Assembly: GCF_036507355.1 (NCBI RefSeq)
Contig: NZ_AP027879.1
Source: Escherichia coli
GTDB lineage: Bacteria; Pseudomonadota; Gammaproteobacteria; Enterobacterales; Enterobacteriaceae
Reading direction: 5' to 3' (one strand)
Length of the DNA: 47,389 nucleotides
Part shown: positions 3,883 through 9,918 of the stretch, piece after piece
Numbering within the stretch: the first letter of the stretch is position 1
Layout: every line of letters starts with the position of its first letter
Position numbers and translations under genes: made by a program
The notes under the pieces: generated by a model
Seen by the model: the letters and a program-made list of their open reading frames with translations, nothing else
Database searches by the model: none
Told to the model about the DNA's origin: nothing

Positions 3883-4104
3883 AAAAACAAAGATAAAATG
3901 TAAAACACTCGCGACAAGAAGACGAAGATAAAACCATCCTCAGCCAAGCCACTTAACAAAAGTGCTCCCTGTTTTCACTGCAAAACGTTTCTTACGCTCC
4001 CTGGCAATTTCTTTCCTGAATTTAGCACGTTCTTCCCCCTGAGGGAATTGATAGATTTTAGCCATGAGCTACCTCATTTCGATCTCAAAACGAAGTTTAT
4101 GCAA

Positions 4105-4941
4105 TTATCCTCTGAAACCGTATGGTATTCTGATATCTAAGCCCTCACTTTCTTTATCTATTTTATAAGAAAACCTTAGCTTTGATGCTCTTCTTGCGAC
4201 TCTCTCAACGATTTTAACTTCGAGATGATTAATCTCTGTATATTGATTTATTTTTTCAATATTTTTTTGCAGAAAAACCTTATTAAAATCCTTAAAATTC
4301 TGATAAAGGTAAACTTTTTCGCCATTATCTATTCTGAATAATTCAAGTTCATCCTTTAATACATCTACTTCAATGTCGAAAAATGTCTTTTTACCACTGC
4401 TGTATTGTTTCCTGATAAACTGATAAAGCATATTTGAATTTTGATCAGCGAGTCTTACAGACGATATCAAAACCTGAGTAGTGTAAGAATCCTTTAACAT
4501 CGTGATATATGGCTCAATGACATGTGAAAAAGCAATATCAATATATCCTTCACTTTCAACATAATCACAAAACGCAGTCAGGTTCATAAGCCTGACTGCA
4601 TCAGAAGGTAATTTACCTCTCTTCTTCGTATGTCCAGAGCTTTGATTGCCCTGAGGTGTGAGAAGTTGATTTCGAGGAATGCGAATAACACTGGCCTGAA
4701 GTTCTTCTGCCCCCTCTTTCAACTGCCGGTAAGCACCTGTTACATCAATATCAGCGATAAATGCATATTCCCGAGCCGTAATACGAAAGGTTGCCCCCTC
4801 AGATAACTCTTCACGTGAATCAATCTGCGCCATAGCCATAAACAAAATTCTTCTGGCAGACAAAGGCAACGATGAGAATGTGCTGTTAATTTCATTTCTG
4901 TGGCGAATTTTTGTTTTCTTTGTAACGCTCAGTAAGTTCAT
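4105..4941 (-). CDS. repB: Rep_3-family iteron-plasmid replication initiator
   Basis: 278 aa; family assigned from overall resemblance to iteron-plasmid initiators; iterons and DnaA boxes lie directly upstream. Confidence 0.85.
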   Translation of the reverse strand: MNLLSVTKKTKIRHRNEINSTFSSLPLSARRILFMAMAQIDSREELSEGATFRITAREYAFIADIDVTGAYRQLKEGAEELQASVIRIPRNQLLTPQGNQSSGHTKKRGKLPSDAVRLMNLTAFCDYVESEGYIDIAFSHVIEPYITMLKDSYTTQVLISSVRLADQNSNMLYQFIRKQYSSGKKTFFDIEVDVLKDELELFRIDNGEKVYLYQNFKDFNKVFLQKNIEKINQYTEINHLEVKIVERVARRASKLRFSYKIDKESEGLDIRIPYGFRG

Positions 4942-5193
4942 ACATTACCTGTGGTTTTTAAGTTCTGATGGTGAAATCATAACCACAAAGGCGGAAATAT
5001 GTAAAGTGGTTTATCCACCTTATGTATTTCCACCAAAACACGGATCACATGAAAGAATTTTTATCATTTATATTCAATATGATAGAAATGCGCAGGTATC
5101 CACCTTTTAACGTCATACGTTAAATTAGAGCACTATAAAGAACTAAAGAAATGAAGATACAAAGATACGAATATCTGAATAAAAACAGAAAAA

Positions 5194-5313
5194 TGCGTAC
5201 CCATCCACCTTTCAGTGCGTACCCATCCACCTTTCAGTGCGCAGCCATCCACCTTTCATGAAAATTACAGTGCGTACCCATCCACCTTTCAGTGCGTACC
5301 CATCCACCTTTCA
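5194..5313. repeat. Five 22-bp iterons (TGCGTACCCATCCACCTTTCAG) of the Rep_3 replicon
   Basis: Five near-identical direct repeats, two plus one plus two with an 11-bp spacer. Confidence 0.75.
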
Positions 5314-5484
5314 TTTTGAGGCGACAAAAAACAACACCTATCTTAATGAAATTATTGATAAAAAAGCTGGCACAATGTTTGCAGAATAAGTTAAAGTAAG
5401 TTAAAGATCTTAAAGTAGATCTACCGATCTACATTTAAGATCTTAAAAACAAGAAGTTTAATAAGCAAAAAAACACAAAAAATC

Positions 5485-5532
5485 TGTGGATAACTCTGCT
5501 CAAAACAAAAAATTCACAGCGCCTGTGGATAA
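5485..5532. promoter_or_regulatory. Two DnaA boxes (TGTGGATAA) beside an AT-rich stretch; part of oriV
   Basis: TTATCCACA consensus at 5485-5493 and 5524-5532; AT-rich region 5340-5480. Confidence 0.5.
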
Positions 5533-6174
5533 CTTTGCGTAAACCCGGAGGACAGATCACTCTGAACCAAGACAACCACACATAAAAACAATATGCTCAT
5601 TTTTTAACCACTGTGCGTAAGTGCCTAATGTAATCCCTGTGCTATTCCGCTTCCTCGCTCACTAACTCGCTACACTCGGTCGTTCGGCTGCGGCGAGCGG
5701 TGTCTCCTTTCTCAAAACCAGAAGAGTTCAGCTCATACGATCCGTTGATTGATCCTTTTTGGATCTTTCACTGAGAAGCCCTGAATCGCTTTCTGCCGCT
5801 TCGTTCGATACAACCATGGTGAAACCATGCGAAATCGAAAAAATCGCTCAGAATGCGATACAGCGCGTTTTAGAGGGTATTTACAAAACAGTCGTTGCCT
5901 TGAGGAAATTTTGATCAAGATTGAACTCCTATCCGGATCATGGCAACAGATCACAGCAACAAGGCCGCTAAAAAGCGTTGAGCGGCGTTAAAAACCGTTA
6001 AACCGTAGCTGACTACAACGAAACGGGAAAAAACGCTCAGAACGCGTTACAGAGCGTTTTAAGGCGATGTCGGAAAGAGCCATATCTCACCTGTTCTGAT
6101 GTTTTTCTCAACATAAGCACTTTTAAGAGTGCTTTTAAAGATGCTATTATGCCAATGAGACAAGCGGAGGGCTT

Positions 6175-6426
6175 ATGAGCTATCAAATTCTGACAACTAC
6201 AGCGGCCAGTATTACTGACCTGAAAAAAAATCCTATGGGAACCGTAGCTGAAGGTGAAGGGGACGCTGTTGCGATCCTGAACCGAAACGAACCGGCGTTC
6301 TATTGCGTTCCACCAAAACTTTACGCCTACTATCGGGAACTCGCTGAAGATGCTGAGTTAAACGCTGTTGCTGATGAGCGCATGAAAAACCCGGAAATTG
6401 TGAAGGTTAACCTGGATGACCTATGA
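6175..6426 (+). CDS. stbD: Phd/YefM-family antitoxin
   Basis: 83 aa; overlaps the downstream toxin gene in typical TA arrangement. Confidence 0.85.
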   Translation: MSYQILTTTAASITDLKKNPMGTVAEGEGDAVAILNRNEPAFYCVPPKLYAYYRELAEDAELNAVADERMKNPEIVKVNLDDL

Positions 6427-6697
6427 ACTGGCTTTTGACCGTAGAGCACTGAAGGAATGGCAGAAACTCGGCCACACCATCCGTGAACAATTCAAAAAGA
6501 AACTGGCAGAACGGCTGGAAAATCCACGCGTACCCGCAGCCCGGTTACATGGTCATGCTGATCGCTATAAAATCAAACTTCGTGCATCTGGCTACAGACT
6601 TGTATACCAAGTCATTGATGAGAAAGTCGTTTTACTCGTTATTGCCGTTGGAAGAAGGGAAAGCAGCGAAGTCTATCAGATCGCAGATTTGCGCTAA
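6416..6697 (+). CDS. stbE: RelE/ParE-family toxin
   Basis: 93 aa; 11-bp overlap with stbD. Confidence 0.85.
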   Translation: MTYELAFDRRALKEWQKLGHTIREQFKKKLAERLENPRVPAARLHGHADRYKIKLRASGYRLVYQVIDEKVVLLVIAVGRRESSEVYQIADLR

Positions 6698-6771
6698 GAT
6701 TAATCATCAAATGATTGGTGATGCTGCCAACTTACTGATTTAGTGTATGATGGTGTTTTTGAGGTGCTCCA

Positions 6772-7047
6772 GTGGCTTCTGTTTCTATCAGCTGTCCCTC
6801 CTGTTCAGCTACTGACGGGGTGGTGCGTAACGGCAAAAGCACCGCCGGACATCAGCGCTATCTCTGCTCTCACTGCCGTAAAACATGGCAACTGCAGTTC
6901 ACTTACACCGCTTCTCAACCCGGTACGCACCAGAAAATCATTGATATGGCCATGAATGGCGTTGGATGCCGGGCAACAGCCCGCATTATGGGCGTTGGCC
7001 TCAACACGATTTTACGTCACTTAAAAAACTCAGGCCGCAGTCGGTAA
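6772..7047 (+). CDS. insA: IS1 InsA
   Basis: 91-aa zinc-finger protein [16 protein letters not shown]. Confidence 0.85.
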
Positions 7048-7469
7048 CCTCGCGCATACAGCCGGGCAGTGACGTCATCGTCTGCGCGGAAATGGACGAA
7101 CAGTGGGGCTATGTCGGGGCTAAATCGCGCCAGCGCTGGCTGTTTTACGCGTATGACAGGCTCCGGAAGACGGTTGTTGCGCACGTATTCGGTGAACGCA
7201 CTATGGCGACGCTGGGGCGTCTTATGAGCCTGCTGTCACCCTTTGACGTGGTGATATGGATGACGGATGGCTGGCCGCTGTATGAATCCCGCCTGAAGGG
7301 AAAGCTGCACGTAATCAGCAAGCGATATACGCAGCGAATTGAGCGGCATAACCTGAATCTGAGGCAGCACCTGGCACGGCTGGGACGGAAGTCGCTGTCG
7401 TTCTCAAAATCGGTGGAGCTGCATGACAAAGTCATCGGGCATTATCTGAACATAAAACACTATCAGTAA
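6966..7469 (+). CDS. insB: IS1 InsB frame (expressed as InsAB by -1 frameshift)
   Basis: InsB-like translation in the -1 frame overlapping the insA 3' end. Confidence 0.8.
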
Positions 7470-7484
7470 GTTGGAGTCATTACC

Positions 7485-7787
7485 AACCAGTTCACCACCT
7501 ACTCGCTCCGCGATTGTGGCAGTCTTCGAAATCCCCGGACGATCCGCCTTTATGAAAGTCTTGCTCAATTCAAATCTTCAGGCTTATGGGTTACTACTCA
7601 TGCTTGGTTAAATGACCGTTTCGTCTTACCGGAATCCCAGCAGAAGAACTTGGCAGAGTTGAAACGATCTTTCCTTGATCCTGCACTCAAGCAGATAAAT
7701 GAGAAAACACCTTTACTTGCTAAGTATAGTATTGATGATTCAGGAAAATTTCTGTTCTCAATAATTGATAAGCAAAATCCCGTCTGA
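7485..7787 (+). pseudogene. repA: 3' remnant of a second replication initiator gene, 5'-truncated by IS1
   Basis: Open frame from the IS1 junction encoding a Rep-like C-terminus (WLNDRFVLPESQQKNLAELKRSF...) followed by 37-bp iterons. Confidence 0.5.
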
Positions 7788-7837
7788 CATAAATCAGCAC
7801 ACATGAGCCTGTCATTTGACAAATTTTTGTCATGAAG

Positions 7838-8370
7838 ATGGGCGGATTTCCACACAGCACCGGCGCCCGGTAAGGTGGGCGGATTTCCACACAGCACCGG
7901 CGCCCGGCAAGGTGGGCGGATTCCCACACGGCACCGGCGCGCGGCAAGGTGGGCGGATTCCCACACGGCACCGGCGCGCGGCAAGGTGGGCGGATTTCCA
8001 CACAGCACCGGCGCCCGGCAAGGTGGGCGGATTCCCACACGGCACCGGCGCGCGGCAAGGTGGGCGGATTCCCACACGGCACCGGCGCGCGGCAAGGTGG
8101 GCGGATTTCCACACAGCACCGGCGCCCGGCAAGGTGGGCGGATTCCCACACGGCACCGGCGCGCGGCAAGGTGGGCGGATTCCCACACGGCACCGGCGCG
8201 CGGCAAGGTGGGCGGATTTCCACACAGCACCGGCGCCCGGCAAGGTGGGCGGATTCCCACACGGCACCGGCGCGCGGCAAGGTGGGCGGATTCCCACACG
8301 GCACCGGCGCGCGGCAAGGTGGGCGGATTTCCACACGGCACCGGCGCCCGGCAAGGTGGGCCGATTCCCA
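7838..8370. repeat. About 14 tandem 37-bp iterons (GGGCGGATTYCCACACRGCACCGGCGCSCGGCAAGGT); IncN-like origin array
   Basis: Head-to-tail direct repeats with two alternating variants; no spacers. Confidence 0.75.
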
Positions 8371-8861: not shown

Positions 8862-9918
8862 GGCTTTGTTGAATAAATCGAACTTTTGCTGAGTTGAAGG
8901 ATCAGATCACGCATCTTCCCGACAACGCAGACCATTCCGTGGCAAAGCAAAAGTTCAAAATAACCAACTGGCCCACCTACAATAAAGCCCTCATCAACCG
9001 TGGCTCCATAACTTTCTGGCTGGATGATGAAGCTATTCAGGCCTGGTATGAGTCGGCAACGCCTTCATCACGGGGAAGACCTCAGCGCTATTCTGATCTC
9101 GCCATCACCACCGTTCTGGTCATTAAACGCGTGTTCAGGTTGACCCTGCGGGCTGCACAGGGTTTTATTGATTCCATTTTTACACTGATGAATGTTCCGT
9201 TGCGCTGCCCGGATTACACCAGTGTCAGCAAGCGCGCAAAGTCGGTTAATGTCAGTTTCAAAACGTTCACCCGGGGTGAAATCGCGCATCTGGTGATTGA
9301 TTCCACCGGGCTGAAGGTCTTTGGTGAAGGCGAATGGAAAGTCAAAAAGCATGGCCAGGAACGCCGTCGTATATGGCGAAAGTTGCATCTGGCAGTTGAC
9401 AGCAACACACATGAAATCATCTGTGCAAACCTGTCGCTGAACAATGTGACGGACTCAGAAGCCTTCCCGGGTCTTATCCGGCAGACTCACAGAAAAATCA
9501 GGGCAGCATCGGCAGACGGCGCTTACGACACCCAACTCTGTCACGATGAACTGCGGCGTAAGAAAATCAGCGCGCTTATCCCGCCCCGAAAAGGCGCGGG
9601 TTACTGGCCCGGTGAATATGCAGACCGTAACCGTGCTGTTGCGAATCAGCGGCTGACCGGGAGTAATGCGCGGTGGAAATGGACAACAGATTACAACCGT
9701 CGCTCGATAGCGGAAACGGCGATGTACCGGGTAAAACAGCTGTTCGGAGGTTCACTGACACTGCGTGACTACGATGGTCAGGTTGCAGAGGCTATGGCCC
9801 TGGTACGAGCGCTGAACAAAATGACGAAAGCAGGTATGCCTGAAAGCGTGCGTATTGCCTGAAAACACAACCCGCTACGGGGGAGACTTACCCGAAATCT
9901 GATTTATTCAACAAAGCC
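8862..9918 (+). mobile_element. IS903-group insertion sequence (IS5 family), complete, 1057 bp
   Basis: 18-bp terminal inverted repeats GGCTTTGTTGAATAAATC; length matches IS903. Confidence 0.85.
8939..9862 (+). CDS. tnpA: IS903 transposase, 307 aa
   Basis: GTG start at VAKQKFKITNW; DDE transposase of the IS5 family. Confidence 0.85.
   Translation: MAKQKFKITNWPTYNKALINRGSITFWLDDEAIQAWYESATPSSRGRPQRYSDLAITTVLVIKRVFRLTLRAAQGFIDSIFTLMNVPLRCPDYTSVSKRAKSVNVSFKTFTRGEIAHLVIDSTGLKVFGEGEWKVKKHGQERRRIWRKLHLAVDSNTHEIICANLSLNNVTDSEAFPGLIRQTHRKIRAASADGAYDTQLCHDELRRKKISALIPPRKGAGYWPGEYADRNRAVANQRLTGSNARWKWTTDYNRRSIAETAMYRVKQLFGGSLTLRDYDGQVAEAMALVRALNKMTKAGMPESVRIA

Follow-up and report, generated by a model that had tools for sequence, protein, structure and literature searches.

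The 47,389-nt stretch of Escherichia coli DNA analyzed here (contig NZ_AP027879.1; hereafter the window) carries, between the IncX1-type origin oriV and the toxin-antitoxin (TA) operon stbDE, two direct repeats that are two copies of one discrete cis-element of ∼33 to 44 bp, independent of stbDE. The element is a constant component at the right-hand border of the replication module in IncX plasmids, a module comprising pir, iterons, DnaA boxes, a single-strand initiation/primosome assembly site (ssi/PAS) and the motif, and its family spans many unrelated gammaproteobacterial plasmids and phages. The duplication represents an insertion/deletion polymorphism of 189 bp with the element at its boundaries, and TA cassettes (stbDE, or a RelE/ParE toxin with its antitoxin) are joined to the IncX backbone exactly at the 3' end of the element. 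Overall, we favor, at about even chances, a reading of the repeats as a sequence-specific, top-strand hairpin-forming cis-element located at module boundaries, and not as a StbD/StbE operator.

A repeat search delimited the two copies at positions 5830 to 5872 and 6019 to 6061, with 36 of 43 nucleotides matching (84%) and a start-to-start distance of 189 bp. In 500 first-order Markov shuffles of positions 5560 to 6180 (621 nt), the best 43-nt direct match had a mean of 23.9 identities and a maximum of 27. Thus, the two near-identical direct repeats that a preliminary description had noticed between oriV and stbDE are real, and the strings it quoted are present; however, these start at 5845 and 6034 instead of near 5857 and 6036, the spacing of about 180 bp has to be corrected to 189 bp, and the internal dyad symmetry is imperfect.

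When a covariance model was derived from 32 contexts, both copies of the window included, it yielded only two strong matches in the window, both on the plus strand. Copy 1 (5837 to 5880; 56.1 bits) has its RAAY...TTTTA core at 5851 to 5872 and an A run at 5839 to 5844; it closes the conserved replication-side backbone of IncX and is ∼88% conserved in IncX4. Copy 2 (6026 to 6069; 50.7 bits; core at 6040 to 6061) lies directly to the left of the stbDE cassette and carries a 9-bp inverted repeat (AAAACGCTC/GAGCGTTTT). Pairing of AGAAYGC with GCGUUUU is possible on the top strand in both copies. The predicted folding energies were −14.3 kcal/mol (z = −2.0) for the plus strand of copy 1 and −6.9 kcal/mol (z = +0.2) for its minus strand, and −13.4 (z = −1.35) and −13.3 kcal/mol (z = −2.1), respectively, for copy 2.

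Alignment also revealed a degenerate copy on the minus strand at ∼5770 to 5800 (5774 to 5794 in the model scan; 11 bits, E value of 1.9). Its R485 equivalent scores 16.7 bits, and its left edge is the point where homology to plasmid pSEEH1578_02 begins. A small hairpin, GCCGCT-N11-AGCGGC (5961 to 5989), holds at 5965 to 5980 an inverted partial copy of the right half of the motif, 81% complementary to 5861 to 5876. Together with the two direct copies, these inverted copies, which the preliminary description had not mentioned, give an arrangement − + − + with a 189-bp period, a layout that fits an old duplication of a 189-bp unit. A long 110-nt hairpin pairing the inverted copy with copy 1 (5766 to 5882; −36.6 kcal/mol, z = −3.7) was not retained; RNAalifold preferred local hairpins over it in 12 IncX variants, with 0 of 18 pairs compensatory, and no such hairpin is formed by the unit around copy 2.

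The 621 bp around the repeats are 100% identical to the sequence of many IncX1 plasmids, among them pPIMMR, typed as IncX1, and ∼1,400 to 1,800 PLSDB records match the repeat region. Far from being absent from related plasmids, the repeat is present in ∼1,400 to 1,600 plasmid records. R485 (IncX1/IncX3 by PLSDB typing), reportedly the plasmid of the first stbDE description, shows the same two copies followed by stbDE; its next backbone gene encodes a J-domain protein. The IncX4 plasmids pESTMCR and pKC25-20925 contain a single copy at the corresponding place of the backbone and no TA genes, the J-domain protein gene coming next. For their part, p4_2_1.2 and p34 (IncX4) have both copies and the 189-bp unit, which in the window runs from the right flank of copy 1 through copy 2 (5873 to 6061), followed by a different RelE/ParE toxin and antitoxin. 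Finally, pSEEH1578_02 (IncX4) and pZ1323CEC0007-3 (IncX1) carry one chimeric copy directly before stbDE, amounting to a 189-bp deletion. The chimera of pZ1323CEC0007-3 joins the copy 1 body to the copy 2 right flank (crossover at the 3' end), whereas that of pSEEH1578_02 joins the copy 1 left flank to a copy 2-type body (crossover on the 5' side). These allele combinations place the motif in the replication-side backbone and not with stbDE. The suggestion in the preliminary description that the repeats are a remnant of a duplicated element therefore stands in part: the 189-bp unit is an insertion/deletion polymorphism among IncX plasmids, but its bounding copies are not inert, being conserved in IncX1, IncX4, R485 and many mobile elements.

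Compared with the TA-less IncX4 plasmids, the TA inserts (∼1.2 kb) replace ∼25 bp beginning directly after GCGTTTTA, and no repeat was found at their right joint. Homology breaks at this same point, the 3' end of the motif, in several independent IncX joints, which makes it a recurrent homology breakpoint.

Some further variation was observed among the relatives. In pSEEH1578_02 (1716 to 2612), stbDE is followed by the same 351-bp antitoxin-like gene that in p4_2_1.2 (1938 to 2620) is paired with a RelE/ParE toxin; judging from this gene order, one TA pair seems to have displaced the toxin of another, leaving an orphan antitoxin. The inserts of both plasmids close with a perfect ∼34- to 40-bp palindrome (GTTAATGCTAATGTATGCATACATTAGCATTAAC). 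Copies were also present on IncX-type (pir-oriV-stbDE) or phage-like contigs of Lachnospiraceae metagenome-assembled genomes (L021 and L023, the latter with a 176-bp spacing instead of 189 bp) and on short scaffolds of Herbiconiux daphne (L027/L028), most likely through contamination or misbinning.

Antitoxins of the Phd/YefM type in type II TA systems bind palindromes within their own promoters, and the preliminary description had proposed that the repeats could be operator sites, that is, sites for autoregulation by StbD or StbDE. They do lie upstream of an operon of the Phd/YefM-RelE/ParE type and show partial dyad symmetry, as type II TA operators do. However, they are located off the promoter. 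The best promoter-like site is a predicted TTAAGA-16-TATTAT (6123 to 6150) with a TG upstream; copy 1 lies 250 nt upstream of its −35 hexamer, whereas copy 2, ending at 6061 to 6069, lies ∼62 nt upstream of it (start at 6123) and ∼96 to 130 nt upstream of the predicted stbDE start site. By contrast, a 20-bp palindrome with perfect 7-bp arms, AAGCACT-TTTAAG-AGTGCTT (6115 to 6134), overlaps the predicted −35 hexamer, is conserved in alignments of stbDE-bearing plasmids, and lies >50 nt downstream of copy 2; it is a more plausible candidate for the StbD/StbDE operator than the repeats. Nor is the motif linked to a cognate TA system: it occurs in elements without TA genes, beside other TA pairs and in phages, and the stbDE-like pair of the small Klebsiella plasmid pC16KP0129-2 has no adjoining copy, its motif lying ∼1.4 kb away, beyond rep. 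The position of the repeats, the palindrome at the promoter and the distribution of the motif together leave the operator interpretation unsupported, and on this sequence evidence we regard it as extremely unlikely.

Beyond IncX, the family shares a core of ∼33 nt with the consensus AAAA-n7-RAAYGCGWTnnAGnGCGTTTTA. Four exact-pattern scans of IMG/VR returned 14, 30, 49 and 41 loci, and clustering by flanks resolved 22 to 29 flank-unrelated contexts (at least 22). These include T5-like Demerecviridae, FelixO1-like Ounavirinae and jumbo phages; Klebsiella lambdoid prophages, where a DUF1064 gene and the replication genes flank the motif; 38-kb prophages of the Mu/P2-like type, where tail genes flank it; an Arsenophonus element, in which it separates the genes for an O-like initiator and DnaB; and a 222-kb Enterobacter plasmid. 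BLAST searches used the 42-nt motif consensus as the query, and their counts at an E value of ≤10 take in partial matches. They detected 1,204 places in 779 phage records (query coverage of ≥80% in 177 records), 2,588 places in 1,621 plasmid records (≥80% in 1,453) and, in 1,247 of 5,426 complete E. coli genomes, 875 chromosomal and 1,449 plasmid places (≥80% in 874 genomes). Genomes carry 1 to 4 copies. When ∼100,000 representative bacterial genomes were scanned, only 9 loci were found, mostly on plasmid or prophage contigs. This rarity, together with the spread over plasmids and phages, indicates that the motif is a feature of mobile elements and not a regulon site of the hosts.

In small MobQ plasmids, the motif occupies the 3' part of mobQ or lies just past the mob gene, a few hundred base pairs from an iteron origin. 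Two such plasmids of 4 kb (L069, 2098 to 2141; L070, 833 to 876) have it in frame within mobQ (EKTPQNALQDVL; ...EKTPQNALQDVLD...). Both IncX copies are open in the mobQ frame as well (EKIAQNAIQRVLEG and GKNAQNALQSVLRR), whereas most phage copies contain stops. An E. coli island between yciI and tonB (L108/L109) has one good and two partial copies in alternating orientation, which share the core GCGTTACAGAGC, within an 870-bp gene-free stretch; the island contains genes for small and large serine recombinases, and the copies lie ∼220 to 470 bp from the small ones. With regard to transcription units, the motif follows a canonical terminator by 45 to 60 nt in 5 contexts from 4 flank-unrelated families, namely, T5, IME260, the Enterobacter plasmid and its jumbo-phage relative (L006/L058), and Phytobacter (L026). 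It is co-oriented with the flanking open reading frames (ORFs) in 14 of ∼24 informative families, a crude measure that was based on ORFs of ≥90 amino acids.

Conservation was counted with one representative per family and only at positions left free by the search patterns. The AAAA at −11 to −8 was found in 19 of 22 families, and C at −4, T at −3, Y at −2 and A at −1 were conserved as well; the eight middle bases retained WT..AG.. in 29 of 31 distinct sequences, and the right flank is G rich, often ..GGGTAT. Two foldings can be drawn: a top-strand hairpin with a 7-bp stem (AGAAYGC/GCGUUUU) and an 8-nt loop (GWUnnAGn), and a longer palindrome in which the A run pairs with the T run. Neither helix showed covariation above column-shuffled controls. 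At the two variable stem positions, wobble pairs (G·U/U·G) were preferred over Watson-Crick pairs in 26 and 25 of 32 contexts, so that the top strand folds better than the bottom strand (mean of −14.3 versus −10.0 kcal/mol; P = 2e-4). The conserved free positions, the lack of covariation and the wobble preference argue for recognition of the sequence itself, possibly while folded as a hairpin on a single strand, and not of a generic stable stem.

The motif was also compared with known elements. The Rfam 15 covariance models gave no match at an E value of ≤1 in positions 4000 to 8000 of the window, nor over the motif in 7 other loci. The repeats fall outside the D1/D2 iteron family, and their likeness to a pi iteron or half-iteron is an 8-mer resemblance only, noted by eye. 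No match with up to 3 mismatches was found in phage G4, whose oric sequence is unrelated; the homology to the n' site of ColE1/pBR322 is confined to 5640 to 5705, ending before the repeats, and covariance model R1 found nothing in ColE1-like plasmids. Linkage to DnaA boxes was rejected as a general feature, being limited to IncX1 and T5-like phages. The remaining comparisons were made by eye against consensus sequences. For attC (R''/R' GTTRRRY), Xer sites (dif, cer; 11-6/8-11 arms), the Tn3-family 38-bp inverted repeat (IR; GGGG...TAAG) and Hin-type hix (12-2-12), short resemblances (GCGTTTTAGG versus GCGTTAGGC) and no full architecture were seen, recombinases not having been searched systematically. 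Resemblances that were partial and not general were noted for Tus/Ter, dif/cer/psi, hix/gix, the Tn3-family and Tn402 IRs, MuA and attC/VCR; for the KorB operator, boxA/nut, LexA, PurR, CRP-S, IHF and Fis sites; and for direct repeats of the PhoP/PmrA/CpxR/OmpR type and sigma-54, -32, -E and -28 promoters. A mimic of the type I-F CRISPR repeat (CTTAGAA plus a GTACAG-like loop) has no Cas6f stem and was judged coincidental. A coding frame AQNALQxVL is open only in the IncX and mobQ copies, with stops in most phages, and a mini-ORF MR(Y/L/F)(R/S)AF is without a Shine-Dalgarno sequence and is lost when Y is C.

The left terminal repeat of phage T5 contains the inverted repeats IRA to IRD, palindromes and DnaA boxes (Wang et al. 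2005, AY587007; Davison, bioRxiv 10.1101/866236). The T5 motif (9273 to 9297; 49.1 bits) lies between the annotated palC terminator and palD/IRD', within a conserved non-coding block of T5-like phages and only slightly left of the segment in which the injection-stop signal has been proposed to reside. In IME260 and other Demerecviridae it occupies the corresponding position, next to LexA-like and DnaA boxes. The motif is thus physically part of these regions, and the annotated IRB (AGAAAGCGTTTTAGGCGGC...) resembles a shortened version of it. Nevertheless, the T5 literature takes the repeats as T5 specific, and neither the annotation (AY587007) nor Davison (bioRxiv 10.1101/866236) singles out the motif or notes that it is shared with plasmids and other phages. 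Three neighboring features of T5-like phages were also observed: a near-perfect LexA-box-like palindrome (ACTGTATAAACATACAGT) with DnaA boxes ∼60 to 150 nt past the motif (IME260, 2560 to 2840; T5 locus L111, 5300 to 5400); a more symmetrical "cousin" palindrome (TCTAAAACGCTCTAGAATCGATTCTAAGCGGTTTTAGA) ∼290 nt downstream; and, in the terminal repeat of IME260 (L046, 3040 to 3200), a G+C-rich, apparently highly structured non-coding stretch (gggcggcaagacgaaacggaaac...gcccccgccc) that might be an uncharacterized RNA.

According to the boundary-element reading that we favor, the element would act in cis through its primary sequence and not merely through a stable stem, and a factor shared by its hosts would probably recognize it, either as a hairpin of the top strand or in duplex form. 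It may thereby mark or insulate the border at which a completed transcription or replication unit gives way to the following module. Through its 30-bp identity and its hairpin, the element would become a hot spot of recombination by short homology or slippage, resulting in duplication and cassette swaps. Recombination at the element, promoted by short homology or by the hairpin, would have brought in the second copy and would sometimes remove it, as the differing crossover points of the alleles suggest. A wider proposal, possible at chances clearly short of even, is that the motif is a cis-signal not previously described, recognized by machinery that enterobacterial hosts share. It could be, for example, a minimal site for priming or protein loading in the form of a top-strand hairpin, or a duplex bound by a host factor, and unrelated mobile elements would each have kept it: IncX plasmids near oriV, T5-like phages next to the injection-stop/DnaA-box block, FelixO1-like and jumbo phages, and prophages in their replication modules. 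If so, the element would also serve as a 30-bp linker for the exchange of modules between phages and plasmids.

Several observations weigh against the boundary-element reading. The core positions were fixed by the search patterns, which inflates their apparent conservation. Orientation is mixed: ∼7 families are convergent or anti-oriented, with a minus-strand gene ending 0 to 60 nt away and a T run following on that strand. In the small MobQ plasmids, the motif lies inside a reading frame. Junction behavior was seen for IncX only, the junction of the lambdoid family lying further upstream, and the breakpoints at the 3' end might merely mark the end of selection on the backbone. In addition, the function assigned to the motif is inferred.

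Some of these features would be expected if the motif were an intrinsic terminator or insulator, its A tract, palindrome and T tract halting leftward transcription from the cargo or TA side before it reaches oriV and, in phages, ending minus-strand genes. The A4 before and T4 after the quasi-palindrome are conserved without being forced by the patterns, copy 1 is predicted to be terminator-like on the minus strand (5859 to 5843, then T6), the minus strand of copy 2 folds well, and the ∼7 anti-oriented families place the T run past the end of a minus-strand gene to the right of the motif. The motif shares with bidirectional Rho-independent terminators an A tract, a G+C-containing dyad, a T tract and an intergenic position, sometimes right past gene ends. 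It differs from them in that the plus-strand U run lies within the 3' arm of the stem and is followed by A and purines, while on the minus strand, where T4 to T6 does follow, two stem pairs become A·C mismatches in most copies and the folds can be weak (copy 1, see above; L006, −2.4 kcal/mol). Moreover, the motif often lies just past a genuine terminator, as in the five contexts described above; in L020 it precedes the dnaB start by 20 nt, within what appears to be an operon, and its loop is conserved, whereas terminators normally do not conserve loop sequence across unrelated genomes. A simple terminator model consequently fits poorly, and we consider this explanation rather unlikely. Still less probable, although attractive, is a signal of the ssi or single-strand origin (sso) type, in which a DNA hairpin of the top strand, exposed on the template of the lagging strand or on incoming single-stranded DNA, would be recognized for priming, with recombination as a by-product, as at the RSB sequence discussed below. 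A strand-specific, G·T-tolerant hairpin would suit such a role, as would homology breakpoints at the motif, its location in spacer DNA past a terminator, which is probably untranscribed, and the plus strand being presumably the lagging-strand template for a rightward fork from oriV. So would the proximity to origins or replication genes in IncX1/X4 (oriV plus PAS), small Rep-iteron plasmids, the Arsenophonus element (O-like/DnaB), Klebsiella prophages (after the replication genes) and T5-like phages (beside DnaA boxes). However, the motif has no similarity to G4 oric or the ColE1 PAS, it appears from the plasmid BLAST search to be absent from IncF-type plasmids with known G sites, and its association with DnaA boxes is restricted as stated above. 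It also occurs in Mu/P2-like tail-gene operons and other non-replication contexts, and the FelixO1-like contexts are left unexplained.

The breakpoints falling exactly after GCGTTTTA in several independent joints, and the direct repeats flanking a unit whose loss is precise in some plasmids, could also point to a site-specific recombination site (att, res or attC like) for exchange of the 189-bp unit and of TA modules. The alternating copies near small serine recombinase genes in the yciI-tonB island would agree with this, and the window itself encodes a resolvase (67 to 705). Nonetheless, no recombinase common to the carriers is apparent, and none is encoded nearby in T5-like and FelixO1-like phages or small plasmids; two direct copies coexist stably in ∼1,000 plasmids; the crossovers differ between pZ1323CEC0007-3 (3' end) and pSEEH1578_02 (5' side); the covariance-model scan of the window found no motif near its resolvase gene; and the motif did not fit the hix, res, dif/cer, attC or Tn3-IR architectures in the by-eye comparisons. 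Such a site is therefore a very improbable explanation. The motif might, alternatively, be a functionless relic, either of an old tandem duplication of the 189-bp unit, which the − + − + arrangement and its period would fit, or of a mobQ-type 3'-end fragment (...AQNA(I/L)Q.VL...) that hitchhiked, in accordance with the in-frame position in two small plasmids and with the open IncX copies, whose Y positions are synonymous. Against this, most phage copies have stops in that frame (TAG AAT GCG TTT TAG), a 1-nt indel breaks it in p4_2_1.2, and the retention of 33 nt in >20 unrelated flanks as well as in IncX1, IncX4 and R485 is hard to explain without selection; we hold a relic to be highly unlikely.

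From left to right, the plasmid region shows pir, iterons, an A+T-rich stretch, DnaA boxes, the ssi/PAS, the two repeats, stbDE and IS1. The pir gene, for a Rep3-family initiator, is on the minus strand (4105 to 4941). It is followed by a gamma-type oriV (5086 to 5532) with 22-bp iterons of family D1/D2 (TGCGTACCCATCCACCTTTCAG), one at 5086 and five more at 5191 to 5311, the A+T-rich stretch and DnaA boxes (TGTGGATAA) at 5485 to 5493 and 5524 to 5532. The ColE1-type ssi/PAS (5640 to 5717), located between the DnaA boxes and the repeats, shows 90 to 97% identity over ∼60 to 78 nt to ColE1-like and small qnrB19-type plasmids, and this homology stops sharply on both sides, before reaching the repeats. 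The relatives of the block include small plasmids of Yersinia pestis and qnrB19-type plasmids of 2 to 3 kb. In the small pHW126-like plasmids pIGRK and pIGMS31, deletion of the palindromic ssi-like sequence is reported to result in higher copy number and multimerization.

On the plus strand, stbD (6175 to 6426) encodes 83 amino acids and stbE (6416 to 6697) encodes 93 amino acids, a member of the ParE_toxin family. IS1, with its left IR and insA/insB frames, begins at ∼6719, ∼20 bp past the stbE stop codon, so that the natural downstream context of stbDE has been lost in this plasmid. Some deposited annotations give the feature under the repeat region, presumably stbD, the name "Primosomal protein 1"; we take this label, a likely source of confusion, to come from the reported similarity of StbD to DnaT and not from the adjoining PAS. 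Elsewhere in the window, a partition/resolution block (67 to 2127) comprises the serine resolvase gene (minus strand), a gene for a ParA-type ATPase (1086 to 1748) and a small ORF (1819 to 2127) without a Pfam match, which by position may be ParG-like. At 7835 to 8370, 14.5 tandem copies of a 37-bp unit (AAGGTGGGCGGATTCCCACACGGCACCGGCGCGCGGC; 94% matches) form an array that resembles the 37-bp iteron arrays of IncN-type origins, and a second replicon fragment may be present.

An annotation of the repeats as stbDE operators should be avoided, and constructs in which the repeats are trimmed may alter the edge of the replication module rather than TA regulation. A sequence of ∼33 nt is found at ≥85% identity in resistance plasmids of the IncX group (mcr-1 IncX4 backbones among them), in T5 and in many other phages. 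Such conservation suggests that the carriers share either a cis-function or a recombination linker, and each of these would contribute to an explanation of how TA and cargo cassettes come to be exchanged at one fixed point in the IncX backbone. It would also provide a testable handle on a conserved, unannotated element beside the long-unexplained injection-stop region of T5.

Literature searches with the sequence strings found no description of the motif, and the IncX literature examined makes no mention of the repeats. The motif and its spread across plasmids and several phage families thus appear to be new, while elements of this kind, conserved palindromic linkers or boundary elements located between the genes of mosaic mobile elements, are already known. 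One comparable case is RSB/CS-6 in the ssoA of Gram-positive rolling-circle plasmids (the pMV158, pE194 and pUB110 group), a conserved sequence in a hairpin that is a recombination hot spot. Like the motif, it is a short conserved sequence in a strand-specific hairpin, shared by unrelated replicons in non-coding DNA near replication functions, and a spot where different plasmids recombine. However, it belongs to Gram-positive rolling-circle replicons, whereas the motif is found in IncX theta plasmids and tailed phages, the two have no sequence similarity, and many carriers of the motif (T5-like and FelixO1-like phages and prophage tail operons) have no obvious need for an sso. Another is the PeSL (promoter-early plus stem-loop) of T4-type phages, reportedly described as a mobile regulatory cassette by Arbiol et al. 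2010. PeSLs are likewise short conserved intergenic stem-loop motifs that flank exchangeable modules and shuffle by short homology. They differ in that each holds a recognizable early promoter and that they occur in many copies per genome within one phage group, whereas the motif is without a convincing sigma-70 promoter, is present in 1 to 4 copies per genome and crosses the boundaries between phages and plasmids.

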